DNA of 64,000 nucleotides, taken from IMG/VR virus record IMGVR_UViG_2595698451_000001, positions 91,632 through 155,631 of that record. One strand, given 5' to 3'. Below the pieces are notes generated by a model. The model ran no database searches. It had not been told where the DNA came from and worked only from the letters and a program-made list of their open reading frames with translations. A program made the translations under genes and the position numbers. The stretch comes from a virus (lineage: Duplodnaviria; Caudoviricetes). This document shows positions 1,059 through 63,884 of this stretch, piece after piece. Positions within the stretch are counted from its first letter, which is position 1. Every line of letters begins with the position of its first letter.

Positions 1059-2372
1059 ACCAAGAAAATCTCTGCGGACGAAGATGTACGTGTGAAGACC
1101 CTCTCTATCGGTGTAGTCATCCCTGATAAGTTCGTAGAGCTTGCACGAGAAGATAAGGACGTATTTGTGTTCTATCCACACACTGTCTATAAAGAGTACG
1201 GGCAGCACATGGATGAGATGGATATGAACGAAATGTACGACAAGTTGGTTGAGAACCCTAATGTCAAGAAAGAAGCTCTAAACGCTCGTAAACTTCTTGA
1301 GAAGATGGCAATGCTCAGATCAGAGTCAGGATACCCGTACATCATGTTCCAAGACAACGTAAACAAAGTACACGCCAATAATAACATCTCAAAAGTCAAG
1401 TTTTCAAATCTATGTTCGGAAGTTCTCCAAGCATCTCAAGTTTCTAACTACACAGACTACGATGAAGAGGATGAAATTGGATTAGATATCTCTTGTAACT
1501 TAGGTTCTATTAACATCCTGAATGTAATGAATCATAAGACGATTAAAGAAACTGTTAAGCTGGCTACAGACTCGCTAACTAGGGTTACTGATACTACACG
1601 TATTGTCAACGCTCCGGCAGTAAACCGAGGAAACCAGCTCATGAAGTCTATTGGTTTAGGTGCAATGAACCTGCATGGGTACCTTGCTACTAATGGAATT
1701 GCTTACGAAAGCCCTACTGCCCGGGAGTTTGCTAACGTCTTTTTCGCTGCTGTAAACTTCTACTCCATAGAGCGTTCTAACGAGATCGCTGTAGAAACAG
1801 GAGAGACATACGAAGGATTTGAAGGCTCTACATACGCTTCTGGTGAGTATTTTGACAAATACATTAACAACAGTTTCCTACCAGAGTCAGATAAGATTAA
1901 AGAGCTATTTGAGGGTATGGAACTTCCAACTAAAGAGGACTGGGCAGCCCTTAAAAAGAAAGTTATGAAGGGCGGCATGTATCATAGTTACAGACTATGT
2001 ATCGCCCCTACAGGATCAATCTCTTATGTACAGTCTAGTACGGCTTCTGTCATGCCTATCATGGAGAGAATTGAAGAGCGTACATACGGAAACAGCAAAA
2101 CCTACTACCCTATGCCGGGACTGTCCTCTAATAACTGGTTCTTCTTTAAAGAAGCTTATGACATGGATATGTTTAACGTAGTAGACATGATCGCTACAAT
2201 TCAGCAGCATGTTGACCAAGGGATTAGCTTCACATTGTTCCTTAAGGACACAATGACAACTAGAGACTTAAACAGAATCGACTTGTATGCACATCACAAA
2301 GGTATTAAGACCTTGTATTATGCGAGAACAAAAGATACAACTCAAGAAGGATGCCTATCGTGTGTAGTTTAA
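1059..2372 (+). CDS. nrdE: nrdE 3' exon
   Basis: FSNLCSE, ISCNLGS, IAPTGSIS, TLYYAR and C-terminal CLSC. Confidence 0.96.
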   Translation, partial: TKKISADEDVRVKTLSIGVVIPDKFVELAREDKDVFVFYPHTVYKEYGQHMDEMDMNEMYDKLVENPNVKKEALNARKLLEKMAMLRSESGYPYIMFQDNVNKVHANNNISKVKFSNLCSEVLQASQVSNYTDYDEEDEIGLDISCNLGSINILNVMNHKTIKETVKLATDSLTRVTDTTRIVNAPAVNRGNQLMKSIGLGAMNLHGYLATNGIAYESPTAREFANVFFAAVNFYSIERSNEIAVETGETYEGFEGSTYASGEYFDKYINNSFLPESDKIKELFEGMELPTKEDWAALKKKVMKGGMYHSYRLCIAPTGSISYVQSSTASVMPIMERIEERTYGNSKTYYPMPGLSSNNWFFFKEAYDMDMFNVVDMIATIQQHVDQGISFTLFLKDTMTTRDLNRIDLYAHHKGIKTLYYARTKDTTQEGCLSCVV

Positions 2373-2419
2373 AAGGTATCTCACTATGAAAAATCAATAT
2401 GAAACTAAGGAGCGAATAT

Positions 2420-2500
2420 ATGGGTGACTTTAACGTAACACCGCAACAGTCAGCAAATGGATTTACGGTACTCGAACTATTCTGCGGAGGAGGACTCTGA
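2420..2500 (+). pseudogene. N-terminal relic of a C5 DNA cytosine methyltransferase
   Basis: AAGGAG RBS, MGDFNVTPQQSANGFTVLELFCGGGL*; ends just after motif I (LELFCGxG). Confidence 0.65.
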
Positions 2501-2676
2501 TGGAGCTTGATAGAGAACTTAGCGAGTTAGGTTATCGTATTCGCAGAGCCATACACCATGGAGAGTGTTTCTACGAGGAGAGCGAGCTACTAAGCTTTCT
2601 CTCCGAGCTTAAAAAATTGGAAGAACTAACAAAGAAACATTATGCAGAGAATCAGGAGGAACGTTTAGATGACTGA
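2500..2676 (+). CDS. Small hypothetical protein (58 aa)
   Basis: GGAGGAGG RBS and TGATG overlap; overlaps the nrdF start; below ORF-track cutoff. Confidence 0.7.
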
Positions 2677-3651
2677 AAAAATTTACACCGCTGCGGACTG
2701 GTCTAAACCAGACGATGACTTTACACAGATGTTTTACAACCAGAATGTCAAACAGTTCTGGCTCCCGGAAGAAATTGCCCTTAACGGTGACTTGCTTACT
2801 TGGAAGAATCTTAGTGTACAGGAACAAGATACTTATATGAAGGTTCTGGCTGGTCTTACATTACTAGACACGGAGCAGGGGAACACAGGGATTCCTACCA
2901 TTGCTGAACATATAAACGGACACCAGCGAAAAGCTGTACTGAACTTCATGGCTATGATGGAAAACTCGGTGCATGCTAAATCGTACAGTAACATTTTCCT
3001 TACACTAGCACCTACTGAAAAGATTAATGAAGTATTCGAGTGGGTTAAGAACAACAAGTATCTTCAAAAGAAAGCGAAGATTATTGTATCTGTTTACGAG
3101 AGTATTGAAAAAGGTAACGATGCTTCACTATTTATGGCTCTAGTAGCGTCTGTGTTCCTTGAAAGTTTCTTGTTCTATAGTGGTTTCTACTACCCGCTAT
3201 ATTTCTACGGTCAAGGCAAGCTCATGCAGTCAGGAGAGATTATTAACTTAATCATCCGGGATGAAGCAATTCATGGGTCTTATATTGGCTTACTTGCTCA
3301 AGAGATTTACAATAAGCAAGATGAAGAAACCCAAGGTGTCTTTAAAGCTAAGGCTATGGAGCTGCTCAGGGCTCTGTACGATATGAGATGGACTATACAG
3401 AGGATGTGTACAGTTCAGTAGGTCTGACAGCCGATGTTAAAAAGTTTGTCCGATATAACGGGAATAAGGCTCTTAACAACTTAGGCTGGGAAGGTACCTT
3501 TGAAGAGGAAGACGTTAACCCAATTGTTATTAATGGATTGAGCACAAAGACAAAATCCTTTGACTTCTTTTCGATGAAGGGGAATGGATACAAGAAGGCT
3601 ACAGTAGAGCCACTACAAAACGAAGATTTCTATTTTGGGGAGAGAGACTAA
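2669..3651 (+). CDS. nrdF: Class Ib ribonucleotide reductase beta subunit (1-nt frameshift near 3383)
   Basis: [33 protein letters not shown]; ORFs 2669-3421 and 3388-3651 join as YD(N)EMDYTED. Confidence 0.93.
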
Positions 3652-3887
3652 TGAGTAAACTTATTCTTTTGAAAAAGCACAATTGTACAGGGTGTGAGCT
3701 AGTAGACCTGTACTTGACAAATGAAGGGGCAGACTACCGCACGTATGACGTAGAAGAGGCGCCGGAAATTGCAGCACAGTATGAGGTAATGTCTGTACCA
3801 GTCCTCATCAAGCTGGACGATGAGGGGAACGAGCAGGAGCGCATTGTAGGGTACGCCCCTAGTGCTATAAGTGAAATGATTGAGTAA
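3651..3887 (+). CDS. Thioredoxin/NrdH-like redoxin
   Basis: CTGC motif and VMSVP cis-Pro segment, directly after nrdF. Confidence 0.85.
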   Translation: MSKLILLKKHNCTGCELVDLYLTNEGADYRTYDVEEAPEIAAQYEVMSVPVLIKLDDEGNEQERIVGYAPSAISEMIE

Positions 3888-3888
3888 G

Positions 3889-3927
3889 CAAGGGAGCAGG
3901 ACTTTATGTCTTGCTCTTTTTTTTTTG
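3889..3927 (+). terminator. Intrinsic terminator after the nrd operon
   Basis: GAGCAGGAC-n5-GTCTTGCTC stem followed by a T run. Confidence 0.85.
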
Positions 3928-3989
3928 TTGACAAACTTTGGTACAGTACGGTAGACTGTAACTATCTTATAAAATACAGGAGGTTACTC

Positions 3990-4184
3990 ATGGCGTATAA
4001 TGACATGAACGGAAAACTGACTGACCCTAAAGTCAGCGACTACATCAGACTGCTTCAAGACCATATGGAGGTTTACGGAGACACCCGTGTCAGAGCTTAC
4101 TTTGAGGACGAGTTAGTACACCCTGAAGTTCAAGCAGAACACTATAAGAACGTCTTAGTGCTTAATTTTAAGGAGGAAGAATAA
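3990..4184 (+). CDS. Hypothetical protein
   Basis: GGAGG RBS before ATG 3990; upstream TTGACA promoter. Confidence 0.75.
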   Translation: MAYNDMNGKLTDPKVSDYIRLLQDHMEVYGDTRVRAYFEDELVHPEVQAEHYKNVLVLNFKEEE

Positions 4185-4248
4185 TACAGGTCAAATGAGG
4201 TTTGCGCTGCAAGGACGGGCATACATTCTTTAAGGAGGTTACACACTA

Positions 4249-4440
4249 GTGGGAACACAATTAAACACGGAAGAAATTTTCAAAAGTAAAGGTTTGATGT
4301 TAATTATTACGGGGGCAACAGCTTTAGTTGAAGAAGAGGGAATGACACCCCGAGAAGCCTTAGAACAACTAGAAAAGGTTAAAAATACGATCTGGGGCGC
4401 TCTTAATGAAATCCACGCAGAGCAGGGCGGTAAGAAGTAA
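4249..4440 (+). CDS. Hypothetical protein
   Basis: AAGGAGG RBS, GTG start. Confidence 0.7.
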   Translation: MGTQLNTEEIFKSKGLMLIITGATALVEEEGMTPREALEQLEKVKNTIWGALNEIHAEQGGKK

Positions 4441-5030
4441 TGAGGGAATCCCCTTGTATTAAATGTGGAAAGATGACGGATGCAGACATGACAATGTGCT
4501 GCGATGGTCGAGAGTGCGGCTGCATGGGACTTCCTATCCATCCGCCTCTGTGTGAGGAGTGTGGAGAGACATTTTTGAGGAGGGCATGGAGTGAGAGGTA
4601 GAGCGATCTACCTAACCCGAGAAGAAATGAAAATGATTGAGTTGTGTTTGGGTAATGTGGAACCGGAGGACTTTATTGCTACAGAAAACAAATAGGAGAA
4701 CTTGGAACCCGATCATAGAGCATACAAAGCATGGCATTCGATACCAGATAAGATTTTCAAAGCATTAAGGGAGGGTGCGGAGTGATGTATAAAAGCAGTA
4801 CCGTCTATCTTACAAGTAAAGACAAAGAAGTGATTGACGAGTTGATTGAAATGTATTACACCGCTATAAATCCCGATGAAGAAATGGAAGAAGGAATACG
4901 CAGAATACGAATGAAAATTGAGAAGTGAAGGAGGGTGTAGAGTGATTGAGGTTATCGTAAAAAGTAAAATTAGCGGCAGATTCAAGAGAGGATTATTCAC
5001 CGCAAGGCAGTTACAGCCCTTTCCGAACGG

Positions 5031-30655: not shown

Positions 30656-30835
30656 AGTGCACATAAAAAATGACTTAAAAAAGAGGGCTGTATGCCTTCT
30701 TTTTTTTTTATTTTTTTTTTGAAAAAAGGGGTATAAAAACTATAGACAGTAATATACCTGTATGTTACACTGTTTACAGATAGTAAATACAGGGTATATA
30801 CAGTATTCTTAAAAATGAGAGGAGAGTTAAAAAAG

Positions 30836-31828
30836 ATGGCGAAAAAAACGGAGTTATTGACGACAGGGGAGATTTTTGAACTGATTAGTGCAGCGCAATC
30901 TGGGTCAGCAGAGGCTACGAACATCTTAGTAAGTCGAAATCAGAGACTAATTTTCCATGTGTTAAAAAGAGTTTATTGTGCTCGTGTTCCCCAAGAGGAT
31001 TTAGTACAGATTGGAAATATAGGTCTCCTCAAAGCAATACAGAATTTTGACTTGAATAAAGGTGTGAGGTTCGTTACATACGCAGTTCCTTGTATCTTTG
31101 GAGAAATCATGATGTTCCTAAGAGACGATGAAGTGGTCAAAGTTTCTAGACCAATCAAAGACTTAGCGATTAAAATTGCCAACAGCGGGTTAGTGAATTT
31201 GAATACTCAAGAGGTTATTGACGCTCTAAACCTTACGGAGAAACCGGAAACAGTACACTTAGCATTAACGTTTATGGAGAATCGAATTACAATATCTACA
31301 GAGGCTGCCATACTGAACGAGGGTACAGATGAGGAAATCTGCCTCAAAGACACTGTCCACCTTAGTAAAGACCTTAACGGGGATAACTGGATGGATAATA
31401 TTGATTTAACAGAAGCAATGAAGGTACTAGACGAACGAGAACGAAGAATTATAGAACTCCGGTACTTCGGTGACAGAACACAAGACTACGTAGCTGCCGA
31501 TCTCGGAGTGTCCCAGACACATGTTTACAGGTTGGAGAGACGTGCACTAAACAAACTTAGAGACACGATGTTATACGGAGGTACTGAGTTCGTTGAGGAG
31601 AACGAATCAGAGAAGCACAGACGGGAAATGCGGGAAAAGGCGATTGAGTTATTAAAGAGCACTACGGACACCTACGCCAGTATTTCAGAAGTGACAGGGT
31701 TGTCTGCTGCTACTATCAGTGGCCTAGCTAGAGAGCATAGACCAGAGCATATGCGGAACAAGGGCAAGCGGAAAGGTATTTTGGGTCTACCTGCAAATAC
31801 TAAAGCTAAGAAAGCTGCCACAGCTTAA
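30836..31828 (+). CDS. Sporulation-type (SigF/SigG-like) sigma factor with an extra C-terminal HTH
   Basis: EDLVQIGNIGLLKAIQNFD..VRFVTYAVP.I.GEI..FLRDD..VKVSR; LDERERRIIELRYF..TQ..VA..LGVSQ..V.RLE. Confidence 0.9.
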   Translation: MAKKTELLTTGEIFELISAAQSGSAEATNILVSRNQRLIFHVLKRVYCARVPQEDLVQIGNIGLLKAIQNFDLNKGVRFVTYAVPCIFGEIMMFLRDDEVVKVSRPIKDLAIKIANSGLVNLNTQEVIDALNLTEKPETVHLALTFMENRITISTEAAILNEGTDEEICLKDTVHLSKDLNGDNWMDNIDLTEAMKVLDERERRIIELRYFGDRTQDYVAADLGVSQTHVYRLERRALNKLRDTMLYGGTEFVEENESEKHRREMREKAIELLKSTTDTYASISEVTGLSAATISGLAREHRPEHMRNKGKRKGILGLPANTKAKKAATA

Positions 31829-34508: not shown

Positions 34509-35942
34509 TTGAGCAAGTTTAGACCGAAATTCCATATTACACCGGAGAGTGGATGGATGAGTGATATTCAGCGCCCGCTATACCTTAACGGAGCTCATCA
34601 TTTGTTTTACCTCTATAACGGTGATTTTAGCTGGGGAGGTAATGGAACAGAGTGGGCACATGTAAAGTCCGTGGACTTGAAGAACTGGAAAAGGCTACCT
34701 ATAGCAATACCAAAGTACACAGATGAAGCCGGAGACCCATGGACCGGGAGTGCTATTGTGGACAAAGATAATACTGCGGGGTTTGGAGAGGGTGCCGTAA
34801 TCGCACTACTGACTATGCCAGCCCCAGAGTACCAATATACTCACCTGTGGTACAGTACAGATGAAGGTAGCAGCTTTAAACATTATAATCCTGGTCCTTC
34901 CTCTTCAACTCCACAGCCTGTAATGAAGAACCCGACAGGGAGTTCTGATTTTAGAGACCCGAAAGTAATTTGGCACGAAGAGACTCAAAGTTGGGTGATG
35001 CTGCTTGCAGAAGGGGACAAGGTAGGATTTTACAAGTCCAAAAATCTTAAGGACTGGGAATACCTTAGCGGGTTTGTAAGACCGGACATAGGGGTTATCG
35101 AATGTCCCGATCTTTTCCAGATCAACCTAGATGAAGACTCGAATAATAAAAAATGGGTTCTTATGATCGGGGGTAACGGGTTTAACTATGGCTTGACAAC
35201 TGGGTTCTGTTATTTTGTAGGTGACTTTGACGGGGTTAATTTTAAACCAGAGACCGACATTCAGTGGCTCGAAAGAGGGGCGGACTCCTATGCTGGAGCT
35301 ACTTGGGACGCACCGTATACAGAAGGTAACTATAGATACTACATCTCATGGATGAACAACTGGGCTTACGCATTAGAGACTCCTTGGGAAGAGTACAACG
35401 GGAACGCAAGTATAGTGAGAGAGCTGCGCCTGAAAACTGTTAAAGGCATACCTAAGCTCGTTCAGCAGCCACTCTGGAATTTGTCAGAAGGTTTCGAAGA
35501 GGTTCTATCCTTAAACCACTTTGAGCTCACAAGGGGTAACGTTATTCAGCAGTCTGACTTAAAATCGTACATAGTAAACCTAGCTGTAGAGGTAACTGAT
35601 GTCACAAGAGGTAAGTTTGGTATAGCTCTTCGAGACGGTGTAAACCACACTGATCTGGTATATGATGCAGCTAACAACGAGCTTATATTCAACCGTCAAC
35701 AGAGTGGAGCAGTAATTGACAAACCTGAGTTTAACAACTTACAACGAACAATAACCCTTCCTAAAGATGGACGAATTAAGTTAGAAATCGTAGTAGACAA
35801 CAGCACTGTGGAGATATTTGTTAATGACGGCGAAGAAGTCCTTTCAAATATGATATTCCCCGAAGAGGGCTCGACAGGATTCCGTATATGGACAGACGAT
35901 TCAGCGCTAATTGAAAGTCTGTCTATTAAGAAGGCGGACTAG
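34509..35942 (+). CDS. GH32 levanase/fructan hydrolase with no signal peptide
   Basis: WMSDIQRP, WTGSA, FRDPKV, IECPD and C-terminal DNSTVEIF beta-sandwich. Confidence 0.92.
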   Translation: MSKFRPKFHITPESGWMSDIQRPLYLNGAHHLFYLYNGDFSWGGNGTEWAHVKSVDLKNWKRLPIAIPKYTDEAGDPWTGSAIVDKDNTAGFGEGAVIALLTMPAPEYQYTHLWYSTDEGSSFKHYNPGPSSSTPQPVMKNPTGSSDFRDPKVIWHEETQSWVMLLAEGDKVGFYKSKNLKDWEYLSGFVRPDIGVIECPDLFQINLDEDSNNKKWVLMIGGNGFNYGLTTGFCYFVGDFDGVNFKPETDIQWLERGADSYAGATWDAPYTEGNYRYYISWMNNWAYALETPWEEYNGNASIVRELRLKTVKGIPKLVQQPLWNLSEGFEEVLSLNHFELTRGNVIQQSDLKSYIVNLAVEVTDVTRGKFGIALRDGVNHTDLVYDAANNELIFNRQQSGAVIDKPEFNNLQRTITLPKDGRIKLEIVVDNSTVEIFVNDGEEVLSNMIFPEEGSTGFRIWTDDSALIESLSIKKAD

Positions 35943-37453: not shown

Positions 37454-37563
37454 TTTCCCGCTTTTTTCCCTGAAAGCCATATTTCCCTTAATTCCCGCAT
37501 TTTTAGGGAAAAACGGCTGATTTATAAGGTTTCGGTGTATATGTTTTTAAGGGAAATTGGGAA
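37454..37563. repeat. TTCCC/GGGAA iteron cluster (candidate centromere-like site)
   Basis: TTCCC at 37455, 37466, 37483, 37492; GGGAA at 37506, 37551, 37559. Confidence 0.6.
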
Positions 37564-37579: not shown

Positions 37580-38131
37580 TCACCCAACATCCGCCCAAGT
37601 TTTTCTTTGAATAATGTAAGAAATGGTTCTCCGATGTACCCCAAACATAGTAGATAACTTTTCGTGAGTATACTCTCCAGTTGCAGCTAGCTTTCTAATC
37701 TCAATGACATCCTGTTCTGTAAGTTCCGCCCGATTCCTACCTTTAGGTTTTGGTTTAGTTTTTTTGACTGGTTTTGTACGCTTTTTAACCGGAGGTTTCA
37801 TAAGTCCATGAGCATATGCGTGCTTATGGTTCTCACTCGATGTGCTCCACTCAAGGTTACTGATACAGTTGTTTTGTTTATTAGTATCTTTATGGTTGAC
37901 CTCTCGTTTGTTATCAGGATTAGGTATAAACACAAGAGCAACCAGACGGTGGACTCTATAATTTTTACACTGGCTGTTAGAACACAGAGACACCTGATGG
38001 TACCCTAACGGAGTAGTATAGGGTTTTAAAATACGACCAGTGTTAGCGTTTTTAACCCTACCTAACGTACTGACTGCATACTTGTCTCCATGTTTCACAA
38101 CACCTTTTAGGGATTCCCAATTTTCTTTCAT
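37580..38131 (-). CDS. Free-standing NUMOD4-HNH homing endonuclease
   Basis: YAVSTLGRV, VHRLVA, VNHKDTNKQNNCISNLEW, C-terminal HTH; own AAGGAG RBS and TG-TACAAT promoter. Confidence 0.9.
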   Translation of the reverse strand: MKENWESLKGVVKHGDKYAVSTLGRVKNANTGRILKPYTTPLGYHQVSLCSNSQCKNYRVHRLVALVFIPNPDNKREVNHKDTNKQNNCISNLEWSTSSENHKHAYAHGLMKPPVKKRTKPVKKTKPKPKGRNRAELTEQDVIEIRKLAATGEYTHEKLSTMFGVHRRTISYIIQRKTWADVG

Positions 38132-38235: not shown

Positions 38236-38796
38236 GTGGTCAAATACACAATCACTTCACGATTTCAGGCTACAGAAGCATTTAGGGATCATCCGCATAC
38301 AGGTGTCGATCTGGCGATGCCTGAAGGAACTGATCTGAAAGCCATAGTCGATGGAGTAATCAGAACAGCAGACTACGGTAGTTCTTCCACAGGAAAAACG
38401 GTGTTCATAGATGCGGCGGATGGAAGAACCTACATCTATGGACACCTGAAGGATTATTCAGTAAGCGATGGTCAGTCGGTCCATGTGGGTGATATTTTAG
38501 GTCATTCAGGTAATACGGGACACAGCACGGGTCCTCATCTCCACTTCGGTATAAAGGAGCACGGAGAATTTATAGACCCGACACCGTACACTTCACTCAT
38601 TCAGTATATGGATCAATTAAAAGGGGCAGCTCACGCAACCGTTAACTCTGGCTTGGATGCTCTGGAAATGCTAAACCAAGCGCTGAGCCAGTTTACTCAG
38701 ACGTTATCGGAGATGACGTTGAACTGCATCAGTCTATTACTCGAAAACCATACAGTGTCTCTAATATCCGATATAGTTCTCTCATGGTTATGTTGA
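38236..38796 (+). CDS. M23 peptidoglycan endopeptidase
   Basis: HTGVD, YGHL, GHSGNTGHSTGPHLHF; hydrophobic C-terminus, no signal peptide. Confidence 0.92.
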   Translation: MVKYTITSRFQATEAFRDHPHTGVDLAMPEGTDLKAIVDGVIRTADYGSSSTGKTVFIDAADGRTYIYGHLKDYSVSDGQSVHVGDILGHSGNTGHSTGPHLHFGIKEHGEFIDPTPYTSLIQYMDQLKGAAHATVNSGLDALEMLNQALSQFTQTLSEMTLNCISLLLENHTVSLISDIVLSWLC

Positions 38797-38890
38797 CATT
38801 CTGCTTATCCTGAATTGTGTGGAGAACAATATGATCGACATTCTGCATTTGCTTCTCGTATCTGGTCAGCGGTTTAGAATCAAAGAGCAT
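38729..38890 (-). CDS. 53-aa protein not in the ORF track (MLFDSKPLTRYEKQMQNVDH...LYGFRVID)
   Basis: Perfect AAAGGAGGT RBS (38906-38898) and sigmaG-type promoter on the minus strand. Confidence 0.75.
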   Translation of the reverse strand: MLFDSKPLTRYEKQMQNVDHIVLHTIQDKQNVNITMRELYRILETLYGFRVID

Positions 38891-38913
38891 GGTCGCTACC
38901 TCCTTTCAAGAGT

Positions 38914-38942
38914 TAGTATGTCCGATCGAATTTCAATTATAC
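38914..38942 (-). promoter_or_regulatory. Putative sigmaG-type promoter
   Basis: GTATA, 17 nt, CATACTA on the minus strand, matching the B. subtilis sigmaG consensus. Confidence 0.75.
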
Positions 38943-38956
38943 AGGGGGAATTAAAA

Positions 38957-39157
38957 ATGACGAGTATCTTTTTGGCAGTAGGTGGAGTTGCAGTTGTTTG
39001 TTCCGCAGGCACTGGTTTAGCAGCAGCTTTGAAATGGTTCCATAACTATGAGCCGGATGTGGATAAAAAGAAAAAGACCGTTAGAGAAACACGTAACCCG
39101 AACAGAAGCAGACTGGACGATTTGAGTAAAAAAGTACGTACAGATAATCACCTATAA
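38957..39157 (+). CDS. Small membrane protein
   Basis: GGGGGA RBS before ATG 38957; N-terminal hydrophobic segment, basic tail. Confidence 0.7.
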   Translation: MTSIFLAVGGVAVVCSAGTGLAAALKWFHNYEPDVDKKKKTVRETRNPNRSRLDDLSKKVRTDNHL

Positions 39158-39170
39158 GGGGGTAACTGAA

Positions 39171-39722
39171 ATGATCGTTACGATGTCATCTAGAGAGCTC
39201 AATTCAGCTGTCAGTTACAAAAGCCCGGTACAGCAGTTTAACCTTAAGGAGAAAGTTGAAGACGATGTGCTTTTTATTGCAAACACTTTACAAAAGGAGG
39301 TGATCGAGGGAACGACCGGACAGCAGAGAAAAAAGATCAAGCAGCTGAAGAAATTGCTGAAAGGGTTCGTTGTGGTTATGGGGGCGGGAATACAAGCAAC
39401 ACCCAAAGCCTTTGCCGCAGCACCCCTAACCGGAGCAACTACGTCAGCAGCAGCCAATCAGATAACACCAGCAATGGTGATGAGTTGGGGTCTGAATTTA
39501 GCTTTAATCTCTGTATCGGTGGGCGTAGCATTGTCGATGACTCTTCTGACACTAGCTGGGATCTACAGAATGATGAGGAAGAGAAAGGAAGCCCAAGAGT
39601 GGACTACCGATGTGATCAAGGGTCTCGTGCAGGTTTTAGTTGCAGTCCCGGTCGTATATCTGCTCTTTTATCTGGCGCAAACGGTATTCAAAAGCTTGCC
39701 GATTTTAAGCGGACTCTTTTAA
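39171..39722 (+). CDS. TrbC/VirB2 pilin-like membrane protein
   Basis: Basic/hydrophobic leader ending AFA, then two TM helices flanking a basic loop (RKRKEAQEW...IKGL). Confidence 0.55.
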   Translation: MIVTMSSRELNSAVSYKSPVQQFNLKEKVEDDVLFIANTLQKEVIEGTTGQQRKKIKQLKKLLKGFVVVMGAGIQATPKAFAAAPLTGATTSAAANQITPAMVMSWGLNLALISVSVGVALSMTLLTLAGIYRMMRKRKEAQEWTTDVIKGLVQVLVAVPVVYLLFYLAQTVFKSLPILSGLF

Positions 39723-40845
39723 AAGCAGCTACACTGGCACCCGTAGCGGTTCTCTCTTCTGCTGTTGTCTCTTCCATGTCGGCAAAAGCCTACGCACAAG
39801 CTACAGATGTAAAAGCACCCATCGACCTTCTTCTGCTGGGGCGTAACAAGGATCAAAATATCCTGACTGCTATACCCGATGCAGTACAGACGTTTAATAC
39901 AGCTGTAGCTAAAGTAAATGAGTTCCTTTCAGACCTCCCACACAATATCGCTGAAATGTCCGTCCATTTAATGAGCTGGCTGTATGAACTCTGTGCTACA
40001 CTGATCCTGAAGACTCCCTTGTGGCTTTTTAATAACGAGTGGTTTGAGAATACCACTTATCTGTTTAGTATGCTGGCTATTGGTATCGTTTCCGTTCTGA
40101 CCGTCATTGAATCGGTAAAGCTCATGCTCAGCAGAGGAAAGAAAAAGAGATCAGGTCCGATGGATTTTAAACTGATTATGCAACGGTGGGGAATTGTAGC
40201 AGCAGCAATGACTGGAATACCTTTCTGCTTTCAGAAAGCCTTCCAAGGACTGAACAAGATATCAGATGTACTCATCTCAATGGGAGCGAGTACGATGGAC
40301 GCTATCGCTCTCCCTACTCATATCTCTGTATGGGATGTGTGCTCGCTGGTGTTATTCGATGTAGTTCTTATTTCTACAATTGTTCCGGTGCTGTGGCAGA
40401 ATGGCAGAAGATTTTTTGATGTCATGGTTTTGGGAGTAACAGCTCCGCTGGCACTGACAGCTTGGATATTCGATCCGTACAGACATCTATTTCAGCAGTG
40501 GTGGAATAACTTGAAACACTTGTCTATGGTGCAGGTTTACTATGCGCTCTTCCTACTGATCCTTGGCTGGTTTATATTTGGCGTACCGACACCCAAGGAC
40601 GTTGTAGGGATCGTAGTGAAGATGCTTGTAGTAATCGGCGGGTTCACCAGAATGACTTCTCCACCAAGACTTATTGCTAAACATCTGGATAACGGTGGCG
40701 GGCTGGATGAGGTGTACGGCGGAGATAAAAATGATACCATTAAAAAAGTTCAACGGAACTTTAAGGATACAGCCAGATTCTCATGAAGCCATCTTCAGCG
40801 GCACAGACAGTTTACAAGCGTGTTAAAGACATGAAGAAAAAATAG
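39690..40845 (+). CDS. TrbL/VirB6-like polytopic membrane protein (start uncertain; frameshift near 40782)
   Basis: About 5-6 TM helices; RRFFDVMVLGVTAPLALTAWIFDP...FQQWW is a VirB6-type signature. Confidence 0.65.
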
Positions 40846-59527: not shown

Positions 59528-62500
59528 ATGAAGGCTTATGATGAATATACAGTAGGTCATTTCACGGTTGTAATGCGGCGGGGCAGTGGCGGCTATGTAG
59601 GTCACTATACTGATCATAGTAGTGGCTCAACATATTCCTTCCATGCAGAGGGGATGACACGTAAGCAGGTACTTAAGAGGTTTTGGAATCGTATTAAATA
59701 GTAGCTCATTTTGTAGTAGCTCTGGAATCACTAGGTATACCGGAGCTACGGCGGGCTACTGGTTAATTGTCAGAATATTTTTATTTCTTAAGAGCGGTTG
59801 ACTTGTGGTCAATGGGGTGATATACTAAAGGTGTACTAAAAACGAGGAGGAATTTTACAATGACTAAACACATTCAGTTAAAAGCAGGAAAACACAGTAT
59901 GTTTGCAGAGGAGACTGACCACGGTTTAGAATTAAGTCTAGAAGGTGAAACGGTTGCCGTATTAGAATATGATGAGGAATCTAAATCATTTAAGCTGTAT
60001 GCATATGGTGATGATGACGAACCTGCCTTCACTCATGAGTATAAGCTCTAAAAAAGAAATTAAAAAGGGTGTTGACTTTAAATCAATACCCTGATATACT
60101 TAAGACATACCAATAAGGGGGGGCTACATAATGAAACAGAGTTTAGAAACATGGAAAAACATTTTTAGAAACCTAGAGGAAGCGGGAGAGCAACTAGAAG
60201 TTATATGGTTAGAGGGTAGTGATGAATGGTGTCTATGTGCAGGTACAGAACTATTTGAAGATGGTTTTAAAACAGAGGATGAAGCAAACGACCGACTAGA
60301 ATATCTAGAGAAAACACTTCTCTAAAAAAGAAATTAAAAAGGGTGTTGACTTTAAATCAATACGATGATATACTTAAATCATACCAAACAAGGGAGAGAG
60401 TAAAATGGAAAAAGTTAAAGCTTACTTACTAGATAACATGGAAGAACTAAAGGACGTTGTAAGAGAGGTTAACAGCTGGAATAATGAACTTGAACATCTA
60501 GACTATCAGTATAACGATGAGGAATTCTTTAATGTTTTCTTTGAAGGTAAACCGATGGAAGCAGTGCGGGCGGCTACATACGGTGACTACCGCTATACGG
60601 ATGACTATGTTAAATTCGATGGTTACAGTAACCTAGTGAGCGTGTCAGAATACGACATGGAAGAAGAGTTAAAAGAAAACATTGAGGAGATCATGGACGC
60701 ATTAGAAAGCAACCTCCCTAACCTAACACTAAGCGATGAACTAACAGCGCTCATTAATGAAGAGGAGGAGGAGGAAGAAGAGGAGGAGGAATAATCCTTC
60801 TCTTTTTTCTAAAAATGTGTTGACACTAAGTCAATAATCTGATATACTTAAGTCATACCAAACAAGGGAGCGGTTAAAATGATAGGGTATAAGGGTAGAG
60901 AAGTGAAAAACGGTTGTTCTTCTAAAGTGTACTACAACCTGCATAAACACACATTCAGCGTCCAGCAGTGTGGCTTGGTGGTTCTTCATTCTGATACTGT
61001 TGTACTGACTGACGTTGAGTTCACAGTAAGAGAATCAGGGCGGCAACGTGTACTAAGGGAGAAGCGGAAAAATGTTCATGCTTTTGTAACTGGGTTTCTG
61101 TCCCTAGAACCTGTCTATCTCCCTAGCGGCTACAAAGAAGCAACTTACAATCCATATCTATATGATTCTTTTGTAGACAAGGAAACAGGACAGCGGATCA
61201 ACAAGGCTGATAAAGTGATCTTGAAAGACAAGAAAATATTTTATAAAAAGGGTTGACAGTCAGTCAATAAGCTGACATACTTAAGACATACCAAACAGGA
61301 GGTACATACATAATGACAACACTAGCAGGATATCGGGTAGACAATTGTAATGGATGCGGCAAGGTTTATCTTGTAGAAGAATCAAGGGACAGAAAGAAAT
61401 GTGAAGGTTGTGCAAAATAGGTGTTGACTTTTCGTCAATATGGTGTTATACTTATCTCATACATAAACTAATTGGAGGTATGCAGGATGTTAAAACGCTA
61501 CTACGCTATGCTTAATCGTTATTTCTTTTGTCTTGAAGATGGTGAAGAGGTGGAAGCGGTAGACGCTAAACTATTCTATGGTGTCATTGGTGGTACTATC
61601 TGTATTCTGCTGTTTATTATCGCTATTACATGGGGCAAACTGCCACTATGAAAAGGCTATGGAAGCGGCTGACACGTAGGAAGGTGCTGACGGTAGACGA
61701 ATACTGTTCACAGGTTAATACAATCTGTGAGCGGTATGACCAGTCATTAAAACGATTATTAGAAAAGTGTTGACTTTGCGTCAACGTCCTGTTATACTTT
61801 AACTATACCAAATAGGGAGGGAGTTATGATGGGACTGAAAACAACTAGTCAATGTGTGGCAACTGCTAAAGAGCTATTAGTCAGTGCGAGAAGTATTAAA
61901 AGTCAATGGGAGCATGCTGCATGGTGGGATCAGAAAGTAGAGCTATTTTGGATCATTCAAGATGCTTTAGAATCTGGAAGGTTTACAGGTGAAGCCTATG
62001 ACGAACTATGGCAGGCTAAACACATCCTAAATGAAGCGGAAAGCGTTGCTGGAAGGTATGCGAACGATTGACAGTGTAAGGCGTTACCATTAAAGGATAT
62101 GGCGCCTAGACAGGGAATGCAAGTGTTATTTGAAGGCATTACTGTTCAGATAGCAAGCAGGCGTTTGAATGGGTTCTATAAGGCTGTTGTCCTTTATGGT
62201 GACGATATGGAATACTTTGAAGGCGATATAATTCAGCTACATGAGGAAACACTCGTAAAAAAAGTTTTAAATATGGGTTGACTTCTAGTCAACTCATACG
62301 GTATACTTGAACTAACAAATTAAAGGGAGAGATCAATTATGATAGGTGAAAGCAGAACAGAGTTAACTCCAGTTTATGACAGACGTAACAGCTTCTATAA
62401 AAAAGGCTTGGGGTATTAGAGAGTGAAGGTGTTAAACAGCTATTGTCTTACCAAACGATTGTAGCAGAGATCAGGAACGGCAAAGCTGAAGTGTTCGGGA

Positions 62501-63884
62501 CACACTCAAGTACAACTTTAAGACACATTAAAGATTTTTTATACCAAAATGGGTTTGAAATTGGGACTAAAAAAGAAATTGAAAAAATGTATATTATGGG
62601 TTGACTTCTGGTCAACTCATATGGTATCATTATAACTGTAAAGAACATTACATACTAAAAACAAGGGAGCGATTTTATTATGACAAACACTAACATTCAA
62701 TGGGCGGTTAACATTCTTGAGGACAACATGGAAGGCATGAGCAAAGAGGAAAAAATCAATTACCTAGAGGACGTTACATCATATGGTTGTGTGCTCTGGT
62801 TGTGTCAGCGGGACTATTTACTACTCTGAGCTAGATGCCATTTTCACAGCACACCTGCACGACATCCTAGGGCGGCTGGATGAGATCAAAGAAGAACACG
62901 ACTATGACGTTCTTCACGAATACATGGAAAGACAGAATAAAGGGTATACGGATTTTGCTGAAAGTGCTGTTTGGCTTATCGTTGAGAACACAGCAAGCCG
63001 CCTTCTAGCAGACCTAGAGAACGAGGAGGAAGAAGAGGAGGAATAATCCTTCTCTTTTTTCTAAAAAGGTGTTGACTATCTGTCAATAAGGTGATATACT
63101 TAAGACATACCAAAACAGGAGGGAGCGATTTTACTATGAAAACACTACATATGAACACTTGGGCGGTTGAATACTTACTGGCACACGTTGACGGCGTATC
63201 ATTTGAGGAAGGTACAGCAAAGCTTGAATACATTGTCAAATACGGTTCAGACCATGTGCTTACAGAGATAGAAAAATACGAGGATAAAACATATGATGAC
63301 CTATTCCGGGAACACTTTGAAGCGATTCTAAAGGAACTAGCGTTAACAGGTAGAGAGCACACAGTGAAGAACTGTTCTATCACTAGCATTCCTTACTATT
63401 CGGTAATGTACATCCTAGAGCTTAAAGCGGAACAGATGCTTGATGGTCATCACGGCTGGTGTGATCATGAATCGATTCAGGAGGACATCAGGGGTTCATA
63501 CGAGCGGGTCACAGTCTGTGCTAAATGTGGGCAGGAATTATAAGAGCGGCAACGCTCTTTTTTTTTATGATTAGTGTTGACTTTAAGACAATAAGGTGAT
63601 ATACTAAAGACATACCAAATCAGGAGGGAATACACATGACAATGGATATACAAGCGTTACTAGATAAGCTGGAGGACATGCAGGATACACGCAATGATCT
63701 AATGGCACAATATGAGGAGACAGGAGCGGCTGAACTGTTAGACGCTATAGAGGAGCTTGATCAGGATATAGAGGAGCTACACACAGACATAGAGATCATG
63801 CAGGAGAATGAGCCATACGCACACATGACCACAATGCAAAGGGAAATGAAACTGAATGGATTGAGTCAAGCGGATTTCATTTGA
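59528..63884 (+). CDS. Early genes, probable terminal-repeat region (59528-59701, 59860-60051, 60131-60325, 60405-60794, 60879-61256, 61826-62071, 62099-62281, 62680-63046 frameshifted, 63136-63543, 63636-63884)
   Basis: One promoter cassette per gene; many strongly acidic. Confidence 0.75.

Follow-up and report, generated by a model that had tools for sequence, protein, structure and literature searches.

A conserved antisense gene of Bastillevirinae phages with a putative forespore-type promoter

Spores are regarded as a refuge from phages, yet some virulent phages, SPO1 among them, can be carried within spores. To our knowledge, nothing is known beyond repression by Spo0A of how a lytic phage is kept quiescent in the forespore and woken at germination. 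Entrapment of the genome of SPO1 (Herelleviridae) in spores has been shown experimentally, and Spo0A boxes and Par-like elements have been discussed as phage adaptations to this state (PMC12991052). In temperate phages, sspC of SPbeta and phi3T depends on sigmaG and sprB of SPbeta depends on sigmaE/sigmaK (PMC8270828). The sigG promoter of Bacilli, which has a spacing of 14 nucleotides (nt), is read first by sigmaF and later by sigmaG (PMC5942855). The subject of this report is a 53-codon gene, together with the promoter-like element GTATA-N17-CATACTA upstream of it, on the minus strand of a stretch of 64,000 nt (the window; positions 91,632 to 155,631 of IMG/VR record IMGVR_UViG_2595698451_000001). 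It forms the right-hand part (64 kb) of a phage genome that has direct terminal repeats and a length of 155,631 bp. The region of the locus is 92-98% identical to the Bacillus subtilis myophages BSP10, SPG24, BSP38 and Grass, and the window phage is a Nitunavirus-like B. subtilis myophage (Herelleviridae, Bastillevirinae).

The reading that we favour, at a probability of roughly 0.55, is that this is a conserved Bastillevirinae gene which lies antisense in a module of ParM, M23, membrane-protein and FtsK-SpoIIIE genes and which has its own forespore-class promoter, read by the host sigmaF and then by sigmaG. Within this reading, the sigma factor that reads the element, the compartment specificity and the function of the protein are the parts that we infer.

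Conservation of the small gene and of the element upstream of it

The original prediction had described GTATA-N17-CATACTA and, after it, a 53-codon open reading frame (ORF) on the minus strand. Both are present, with a strong ribosome-binding site between them and the ORF at 38890-38729. The coordinates of the 68-nt overlap with the end of the M23 gene, and of the -35 box abutting the ribosome-binding site of the next plus-strand gene, also agree. GTATA is one base away from the GGGGG ribosome-binding site of that gene (38957-39157), and CATACTA is 23 nt before the ATG of the small gene. Taken alone, the match to a consensus is at chance level. When at most one mismatch is allowed, GTATA-N17-CATACTA has a single match in the window, where 0.52 would be expected, and at least one match was found in 44 of 100 shuffles. 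The sigmaG consensus from B. subtilis is GHATR-N17/18-CATNHTA. The complete genome of 155.6 kb has two matches to this pattern, and 30 Markov-1 simulations gave 2.9 +/- 1.75. ORFs of at least 30 amino acids are likewise common, with 52 of them within 6 kb. What lifts the feature above chance is the comparison with relatives, in which the boxes, the ribosome-binding site and the protein are conserved.

Among 10 phages from three genera, every column of the -35 box (5/5), of the -10 box (7/7) and of the ribosome-binding site (8/8) is invariant, whereas only 9 of the 53 third codon positions are; the other 44 vary among the same phages that keep the boxes unchanged. The length of the spacer is constant while its sequence varies (8 of 17 bases kept). 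A wider tally covers 25 loci from nine Bastillevirinae genera, as assigned by the taxonomy of the records, with several of the loci being IMG/VR contigs; it omits L140 and L141, which duplicate Goe3 and Mater, and L142, whose ORF could not be located by motif. Of these loci, 24 have GTAT[AT] no more than 95 nt upstream of their ORF, and the nine genera keep GTAT[AT]-N13-15-G... The heptamer CATACTA, counted from the sequences, is identical in 16 of the 25. The strict sigmaG-type pattern is found in 15, and 18 have the sigmaF-type pattern, G(C/T)(A/T)TA followed after a gap of 14-15 nt by G..(C/G)A(T/C)A(C/A)T, which occurs seven times in the whole genome of the window phage and is matched here by GTATA-N14-GGACATACT. 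The loci that miss the sigmaF-type pattern are those of phiAGATE (GTATT-N18-CATACTA), of B4, BigBertha, Evoli and C30-1 (GTATA-N13/14-GGTAA[CT]GATA), of one contig with GTATA-N14-GGTTACAATA and of one contig that lacks GTATA. A GG at spacer positions 15-16 is found in Nitunavirus, Siophivirus, Caeruleovirus, Tsarbombavirus, Bequatrovirus (BigBertha) and Bastillevirus. In phages of the B. cereus group the -10 region reads GG.AA..(C/A)TA instead of CATACTA, and the versions GGCAATACTA, GGTAAAACTA and GGTAATGATA lean to the sigmaF type. To judge from these alignments, the element is conserved as a promoter would be.

The pattern of substitutions indicates that the small ORF is a real protein-coding gene under strong purifying selection. 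Its length is constant at 162 nt in annotated relatives, and across codons 2-31, which lie outside the overlap with the M23 gene, the variable columns at codon positions 1, 2 and 3 number 18, 7 and 29 of 30. Between the window phage and Goe3, pN is 0.20 and pS 0.94, with pN at 0.20 and pS at 0.94-0.99 across the comparisons of the window phage with Goe3 and Goe17; dN/dS is 0.07-0.20 in other pairs and 0.07 over the whole ORF against BSP15. Since selection acts strongly at the level of the protein, the product would matter and antisense RNA would not be the whole story. Where the two genes overlap, it is the antisense frame of the small gene that is better conserved, and the C-terminal tail of the M23 product drifts as a protein. 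The overlap itself is incidental, because phages of the B. cereus group have no M23 gene at the locus of the small gene and hence no overlap.

The protein matches the phrog_5065 profile from end to end (E 3.6e-22, 79.1 bits; its residues 1-53 align with all 53 positions of the profile). A HMMER search of 1.84 billion representative proteins returned 21 matches, of which 18 are 52-81 residues long and share the pattern P-RYERQ..NV..LVL.TI..KK.V.I...EL..ILE.LYE[YFW]RVI[DE], which reaches the C-terminus. The remaining three (P0005, 5144 amino acids; P0020, 830; P0021, 1655) are long proteins, two of them with repeated matches to short stretches, and were left out of alignment A2. With tblastn the gene was found in 154 phage records, 152 of which are named as Bacillus phages, and the conservation of ORF and promoter in module-bearing relatives, for which the original prediction had proposed a tBLASTn check, is borne out by these records together with the 24 loci that keep GTAT[AT]. 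In all 17 annotated relatives inspected the gene is antisense to its neighbours and divergent from a DUF7394-like gene. The description of the gene as hidden applies to five of these relatives (Grass, Goe14, Goe3, phiAGATE and Mater), in which it is unannotated; in the other 12 it is annotated as a hypothetical protein.

Three of the records that carry the gene have unexpected labels. 'Phage f2b1', with Staphylococcus aureus as its host label, and 'Xanthomonas phage Xoo-sp15' are 161 kb and 157 kb long, sizes typical of Bastillevirinae, and their host labels may be wrong. The record vB_BsuS-Goe14 (OL580764.1), labelled Spbetavirus (125 kb, circular), has a Nitunavirus-type module at 96% identity as well as sspC, and may be a hybrid or a mixed assembly.

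Sigma factors that could read the element

Genes for small acid-soluble spore proteins (SASPs) are sigmaG-dependent. Comparator promoters for the forespore class came from four genomes of Bacilli (Brevibacillus, Sporolactobacillus, Aneurinibacillus and Tepidibacillus), which were reached through their sigF loci. G.ATR-N17/18-CAT..TA occurs at most 160 nt upstream of 4 of 21 SASP genes, against about 0.05 expected, and lies 22-37 nt from the start codon; upstream of one Brevibacillus SASP gene (L111) it reads GAATA-N17-CATACTA, with the same heptamer and spacing as the phage element. The sigG promoters of all four genomes have the form GCATA-N14/15-GG[AG]GATACT[TG], and the spoIIR promoters of all four have the form GTTT[AG]-N15-GTCCA[TC]A[CA]TG. 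Written with the GG that precedes its -10 box, the phage element is GTATA-N14-GGACATACTA and is closest to the sigG, spoIIR and SASP promoters of these genomes.

The element had been predicted to be a near-perfect sigmaG promoter. The assignment to the forespore type holds, and GTATA-N17-CATACTA matches both boxes of the sigmaG pattern GHATR-N17/18-CATNHTA with a gene behind it. In an older notation of the sigmaG consensus the second base of the -35 box is A or C, and the T found here would not fit. The element is not purely of the sigmaG type, as it fits the sigG and spoIIR promoters that are read by sigmaF equally well. Promoters of sigmaF are marked by a G upstream of the -10 box, and those of sigmaG by an A on the -10 box's downstream side (PMC3789822). 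The last three bases of the spacer, GGA, supply the G that sigmaF-type promoters keep at this place. Because it combines a G before CAT and a 14-nt gap with a final A, the element would be better described as a sigmaF/sigmaG hybrid, with the upstream G as the sigmaF mark and CATnnTA with its final A as the sigmaG mark.

It is also conceivable that the phage's own SigF/SigG-family sigma factor reads the promoter during lytic infection of growing cells, in which case the small gene would be an ordinary phage gene of the middle or late class, unconnected with the forespore; we consider this unlikely. The gene for this factor (30815-31828) has the only Sigma70_r2 match in the genome. Its product is a full sigma factor with regions 2-4, is 36-42% identical to bacterial proteins of the SigB/F/G family, and has its best NCBIfam matches to NF004052 (187 bits) and TIGR02885 (178 bits), SigF/SigG models whose cut-offs it does not reach. 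In 8 of 8 Bacilli loci, the nearest chromosomal relatives of the phage sigma lie just after a spoIIAB-like coding sequence, the presumed position of sigF. A SigF/G-family sigma is carried by the window phage and by 9 of the 10 relatives with the small gene that were tested with NF004052. BCP78, Bcp1 and phiAGATE have two SigF/G-like genes in tandem. The true start of the phage sigma is probably the second ATG (MAKK...), as in P0034, and after region 4 the protein has a C-terminal extension of about 85 residues, which the bacterial SigF/G members of alignment A3 lack.

Set against this is the distribution of the element. The Siophivirus-like phages KKP_4047, fHSPT3 and Yucatan have an identical promoter and ORF, yet they gave no Sigma70_r2 match and no tblastn match to the phage sigma in searches that found the positive controls Goe3 and phiAGATE, and KKP_4047 gave no match to NF004052. 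As far as these genomes go, conservation of the promoter is independent of a phage sigma gene, and the host forespore sigmas are favoured over the phage sigma because these phages keep the identical promoter without a detectable sigma gene. The phage sigma of the window is only 35% identical to its counterpart in Goe3, g157, while the boxes are invariant, and its region 4.2 reads SQTHVYRLE where the bacterial proteins have SQVQVSRLE. When Goe3 g157 was induced in B. subtilis, fewer than 50 genes of the host changed, and sporulation genes were not enriched among them (PMC9429907). A phage-sigma regulon would be expected to show co-occurrence of the promoter with the sigma gene, which fails in 3 of 3 Siophivirus-like genomes, and recurrence at other phage genes, which was not found. 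Forespore-type motifs are not enriched in the genome (7 against 6.1 expected, and 17 against 18.2 expected), and a genome-wide search revealed no second site of this type with a ribosome-binding site and a start codon behind it. The k-mers enriched upstream of genes pointed only to the early promoters of sigmaA type that lie in the terminal repeats; no class of promoters that could belong to the phage sigma emerged. The suggestion in the original prediction that the phage's own SigF/G-like factor could be the reader is made less likely by the Siophivirus-like genomes, the divergence of the sigma, the Goe3 data and the single site. Where it is present, the phage sigma may also read the promoter.

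Other sigma factors of the host were considered as well. That the mother-cell factors sigmaE or sigmaK, or the stress factor sigmaB, read the promoter is quite improbable. Promoters of sigmaE have ATA at -35 and CATA... at -10 (PMC3789822), and GTATAAT-N15-CATACTAA of the B. subtilis-group phages does resemble promoters of the spoIIM type, for example ACATAAT-N14-CATACAAT. The spacing in the phages, however, is 1-2 nt longer than in the sigmaE-type comparators, and phages of the B. cereus group lack the CATA core (AATACTA, AAAACTA or AATGATA) and yet keep GG..A...TA. The sigmaB consensus is GTTTAA-N12-15-GGGTAT, with which GTATAA-N13-GGACAT agrees at 9 of 12 positions. The third G of GGG is not kept, since the triplet is GGA, GAG, GGT, GTA, GCT or GGC, and the conserved ...CTA end lies beyond the sigmaB hexamer.

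Alternatively, the conserved block TGTATAAT could be the -10 box of a sigmaA promoter (TCGTCA-16-TATAAT), in which case the housekeeping polymerase would transcribe the gene and CATACTA would lie in the 5' leader. In a sigma-70 scan, TCGTCA-16-TATAAT (38963-38936, minus strand) agrees with the consensus at 10 of 12 positions, and Nitunavirus, Grisebachstrassevirus, Siophivirus, Mater and BCP78 all retain TATAAT. Matches of this kind are at chance level in the region (9 against 9.3 in shuffles), and conservation of both boxes among relatives, as expected of a sigmaA promoter, was not found. The -35 hexamer shifts in Goe3, shares bases with the start codon of the plus-strand gene and is not conserved; TATAAT becomes TATAAG or TATAAA in B4, BigBertha, Evoli and C30-1 and TATTTT in phiAGATE, all five of which keep GTAT[AT]. 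A sigmaA promoter would also give no reason for the conservation of CATACTA, or of GG..A...TA, at a constant distance, and the evident sigmaA promoters of this phage, GTGTTGACTT-N17-TGATATACT, look different. We therefore rate this explanation as very improbable. At least five near-identical copies of the latter promoters stand before small genes in the terminal repeats (60131-63636 of the window and 1234-4987 of the genome), where they are followed by ATACCAA and a ribosome-binding site and resemble the early host-takeover units of SPO1-like phages.

Finally, the conserved blocks might serve the plus strand, as an RNA structure or a translation signal between the M23 and DUF7394 genes, with the small gene expressed in some other way. 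The -35 block does abut the ribosome-binding site of the plus-strand gene, and RNAalifold predicts small plus-strand hairpins, in which the complement of the small gene's ribosome-binding site takes part. At -10.75 kcal/mol over 176 columns the consensus fold is weak, and the base pairs in the blocks never vary and are uninformative on structure. Rfam gave no match with E up to 1 between 37000 and 40500, and the leader folds no better than shuffled sequences (z-scores 0.80 and -0.95). A box, a fixed spacer, a second box, a ribosome-binding site and a start codon, in this order, are what a minus-strand promoter predicts, and the arrangement persists in phages of the B. cereus group despite their different flanking sequence on the plus strand. 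A role on the plus strand is for these reasons barely credible as the explanation of the blocks. A hairpin in the leader that would mask the ribosome-binding site in read-through transcripts was rejected on the same two z-scores.

Coordinates and neighbourhood of the small gene

The features of the locus are collected in Table 1. The transcript is predicted to start near 38906-38908, from the usual distance after the -10 box. The module around the small gene has genes for a ParM actin-like homologue, for the HNH endonuclease (minus strand), for the M23 peptidase, for small membrane proteins and for an FtsK/SpoIIIE ATPase.

Table 1. Features of the small-gene locus and the phage sigma gene (positions in the window)
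Feature	Position	Strand	Remarks
-35 box GTATA, inside the invariant block CCTGTATAATT	38938..38942	-	all columns invariant in 10 phages
17-nt spacer ending GGA	38921..38937	-	fixed length; 8/17 columns invariant
-10 box CATACTA	38914..38920	-	all columns invariant in 10 phages
Ribosome-binding site AAAGGAGGT	38898..38906	-	7 nt before start codon; AAGGAGGT 8/8 columns invariant
53-codon gene, phrog_5065 (function unknown)	38729..38890	-	ATG at 38890; stop ends at 38729
M23 peptidase gene	38236..38796	+	Pfam Peptidase_M23, E 2.2e-28; last 68 nt overlapped by the small gene
DUF7394 small membrane-protein gene, divergent from the small gene	38957..39157	+	Pfam DUF7394, E 6.7e-34
Phage SigF/SigG-family sigma gene, candidate alternative reader	30815..31828	+	NF004052 187 bits; TIGR02885 (SigF) 178 bits
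HNH endonuclease gene (HNH/NUMOD4 homing endonuclease)	37580..38131	-	Pfam matches

The small gene had been counted as one of only two convincing minus-strand coding sequences in the window. The present data are consistent with this count: the HNH gene has Pfam matches, and eight other minus-strand ORFs of at least 90 amino acids have no PHROG match. The HNH/NUMOD4 gene sits between the genes on the ParM side and the M23 gene and looks like a mobile insertion. It is missing from several close relatives, the matches of Grass and Goe14 skip the stretch, and in contigs of the RNA libraries X2 and X3 position 37468 is followed by 109 other letters and then by 38231. The HNH gene and the small gene share a strand, with the HNH gene downstream, and read-through from the small gene could reach it. 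Elsewhere in the window, the plus strand at 34509-35942 encodes a 477-residue protein with both domains of glycoside hydrolase family 32 (E 4.4e-69 and 1.8e-27); it is an enzyme of the levanase/sucrase type and might break down the levan matrix of the host.

Proposed function and comparison with known systems

If host forespore sigmas read the element, the phage DNA that a sporulating host traps in the forespore would be transcribed by RNA polymerase with sigmaF, and later with sigmaG, from a start near 38907. The short leader, with its perfect Shine-Dalgarno sequence, would be translated into the small protein, which would act in the forespore as a protein, either by keeping the entrapped genome quiescent or by readying it for germination; quiescence is our guess. 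A possible secondary effect is that transcription runs head-on against the M23 gene at its 3' end and against the plus-strand operon. A stronger version, which we hold to be possible but doubtful, is that the gene is dedicated to the spore state, being silent in growing cells, switched on by host sigmaF/sigmaG only once the phage genome has been pumped into the forespore or trapped in it, and encoding a product that enforces viral dormancy. In such a case the product could block early phage transcription driven by sigmaA, or another early function, and the spore would survive as a virospore from which the phage resumes at germination.

Several observations weigh against transcription by the host forespore sigmas, in addition to the chance level of the motif taken alone, the SigF/G-family sigma in most relatives and the resemblances to promoters of sigmaA, sigmaE and sigmaB. 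Contigs from four RNA libraries (X1, X2, X3 and X7) bridge the locus, for example 38595-39377 and 38738-39790; these contigs are strandless and give neither a start nor a level. The comparator promoters are not from B. subtilis and were assigned by eye without mapped transcript starts. Among close genera the boxes are invariant, so that no co-variation in the alignments links them to one sigma rather than another. In the Siophivirus-like phages a sigma could be present that is too divergent to be recognised. The protein itself gives little guidance, with nothing at cut-off in Pfam (best E 0.028), no match in NCBIfam and no significant match in a profile search of the PDB (best E 0.055, to IF3 and FliS). 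It matches no described family of small forespore regulators or anti-sigma factors in these three collections. The ESM Atlas returned unnamed clusters only (0.78-0.79), and no close relative was found in one genome each of 185,579 species, a search with single-protein patterns that reaches close relatives only.

A conserved gene with a forespore-type promoter offers a genetic handle, in the form of one knockout and one promoter fusion, and the phages Goe3, Grass, SPG24 and SIOphi, in which the element is identical, are in culture. If transcription by the host forespore sigmas holds true, the developmental sigmas of the host would serve as a compartment sensor for virulent phages as well as for prophages, and a role would be suggested for the puzzling ParM/M23/FtsK-SpoIIIE module. 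If the product does enforce dormancy, phages without an integrase or a repressor would possess a lysogeny-like latency switch built into this module. Should the phage sigma be the reader instead, a target promoter of that factor would have been identified for the first time.

A literature search, with supplementary tables outside its scope, found no description of a virulent-phage gene that is switched on by forespore sigmas. A close parallel is sspC of SPbeta and phi3T, which is likewise a gene on a Bacillus phage genome wired to a host forespore sigma (PMC8270828). The upstream sequence of phi3T sspC, GTATA-N17-CACAATA, is similar to the element described here and lies 44 nt before the start codon, as read by eye with the transcript start unmapped. 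SPbeta differs in being temperate, integrated and carried into the forespore with the chromosome, whereas the phage considered here is virulent; and sspC encodes a host-type SASP that protects spore DNA, whereas the small gene belongs to a phage-only family of unknown function. SASP genes also occur in virulent phages. The SPO1-like Okubovirus phages SP8 (L152) and Goe9 (L153) have an alpha/beta-type SASP gene at 283-525 that is antisense to both neighbours and has no upstream match to the strict sigmaG pattern, and tblastn with a SASP found matches in 56 phage records.

SPbeta sprB is a further phage gene with a promoter for sporulation sigmas besides other modes of expression (PMC8270828). 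It is read by mother-cell sigmas, times the excision of a prophage and has a known function as a recombination directionality factor in a temperate phage, and in these respects is unlike the small gene. The sigG promoter of Bacilli, GCATA-N14/15-GG[AG]GATACT[TG], shares with GTATA-N14-GGACATACTA its architecture, including the 14-nt spacing (PMC5942855). The phage element differs in having T for C as the second base of the -35 box, C for G before ATACT and a final A of the sigmaG type, and it stands before a gene for a 53-residue phage protein rather than one for a sigma factor. The SigF/SigG-like sigmas described by Schwartz et al. 2022 (PMC9429907) come from the same group of phages, which tap the sporulation network through them, and the window phage has one. 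In those cases phage sigmas act on host genes, whereas here a phage promoter is apparently built for a forespore-type sigma. It is in virospores, such as those of phi29 and SPO1, that a forespore promoter would matter to a virulent phage; the adaptations known for them are segregation elements and Spo0A-mediated repression. Phage genes linked to sporulation sigmas are thus of a known kind, as SPbeta sspC and sprB illustrate; what is new, judging from the conservation described above, is a phage-only gene family of virulent phages with a putative forespore-class promoter conserved across the subfamily.

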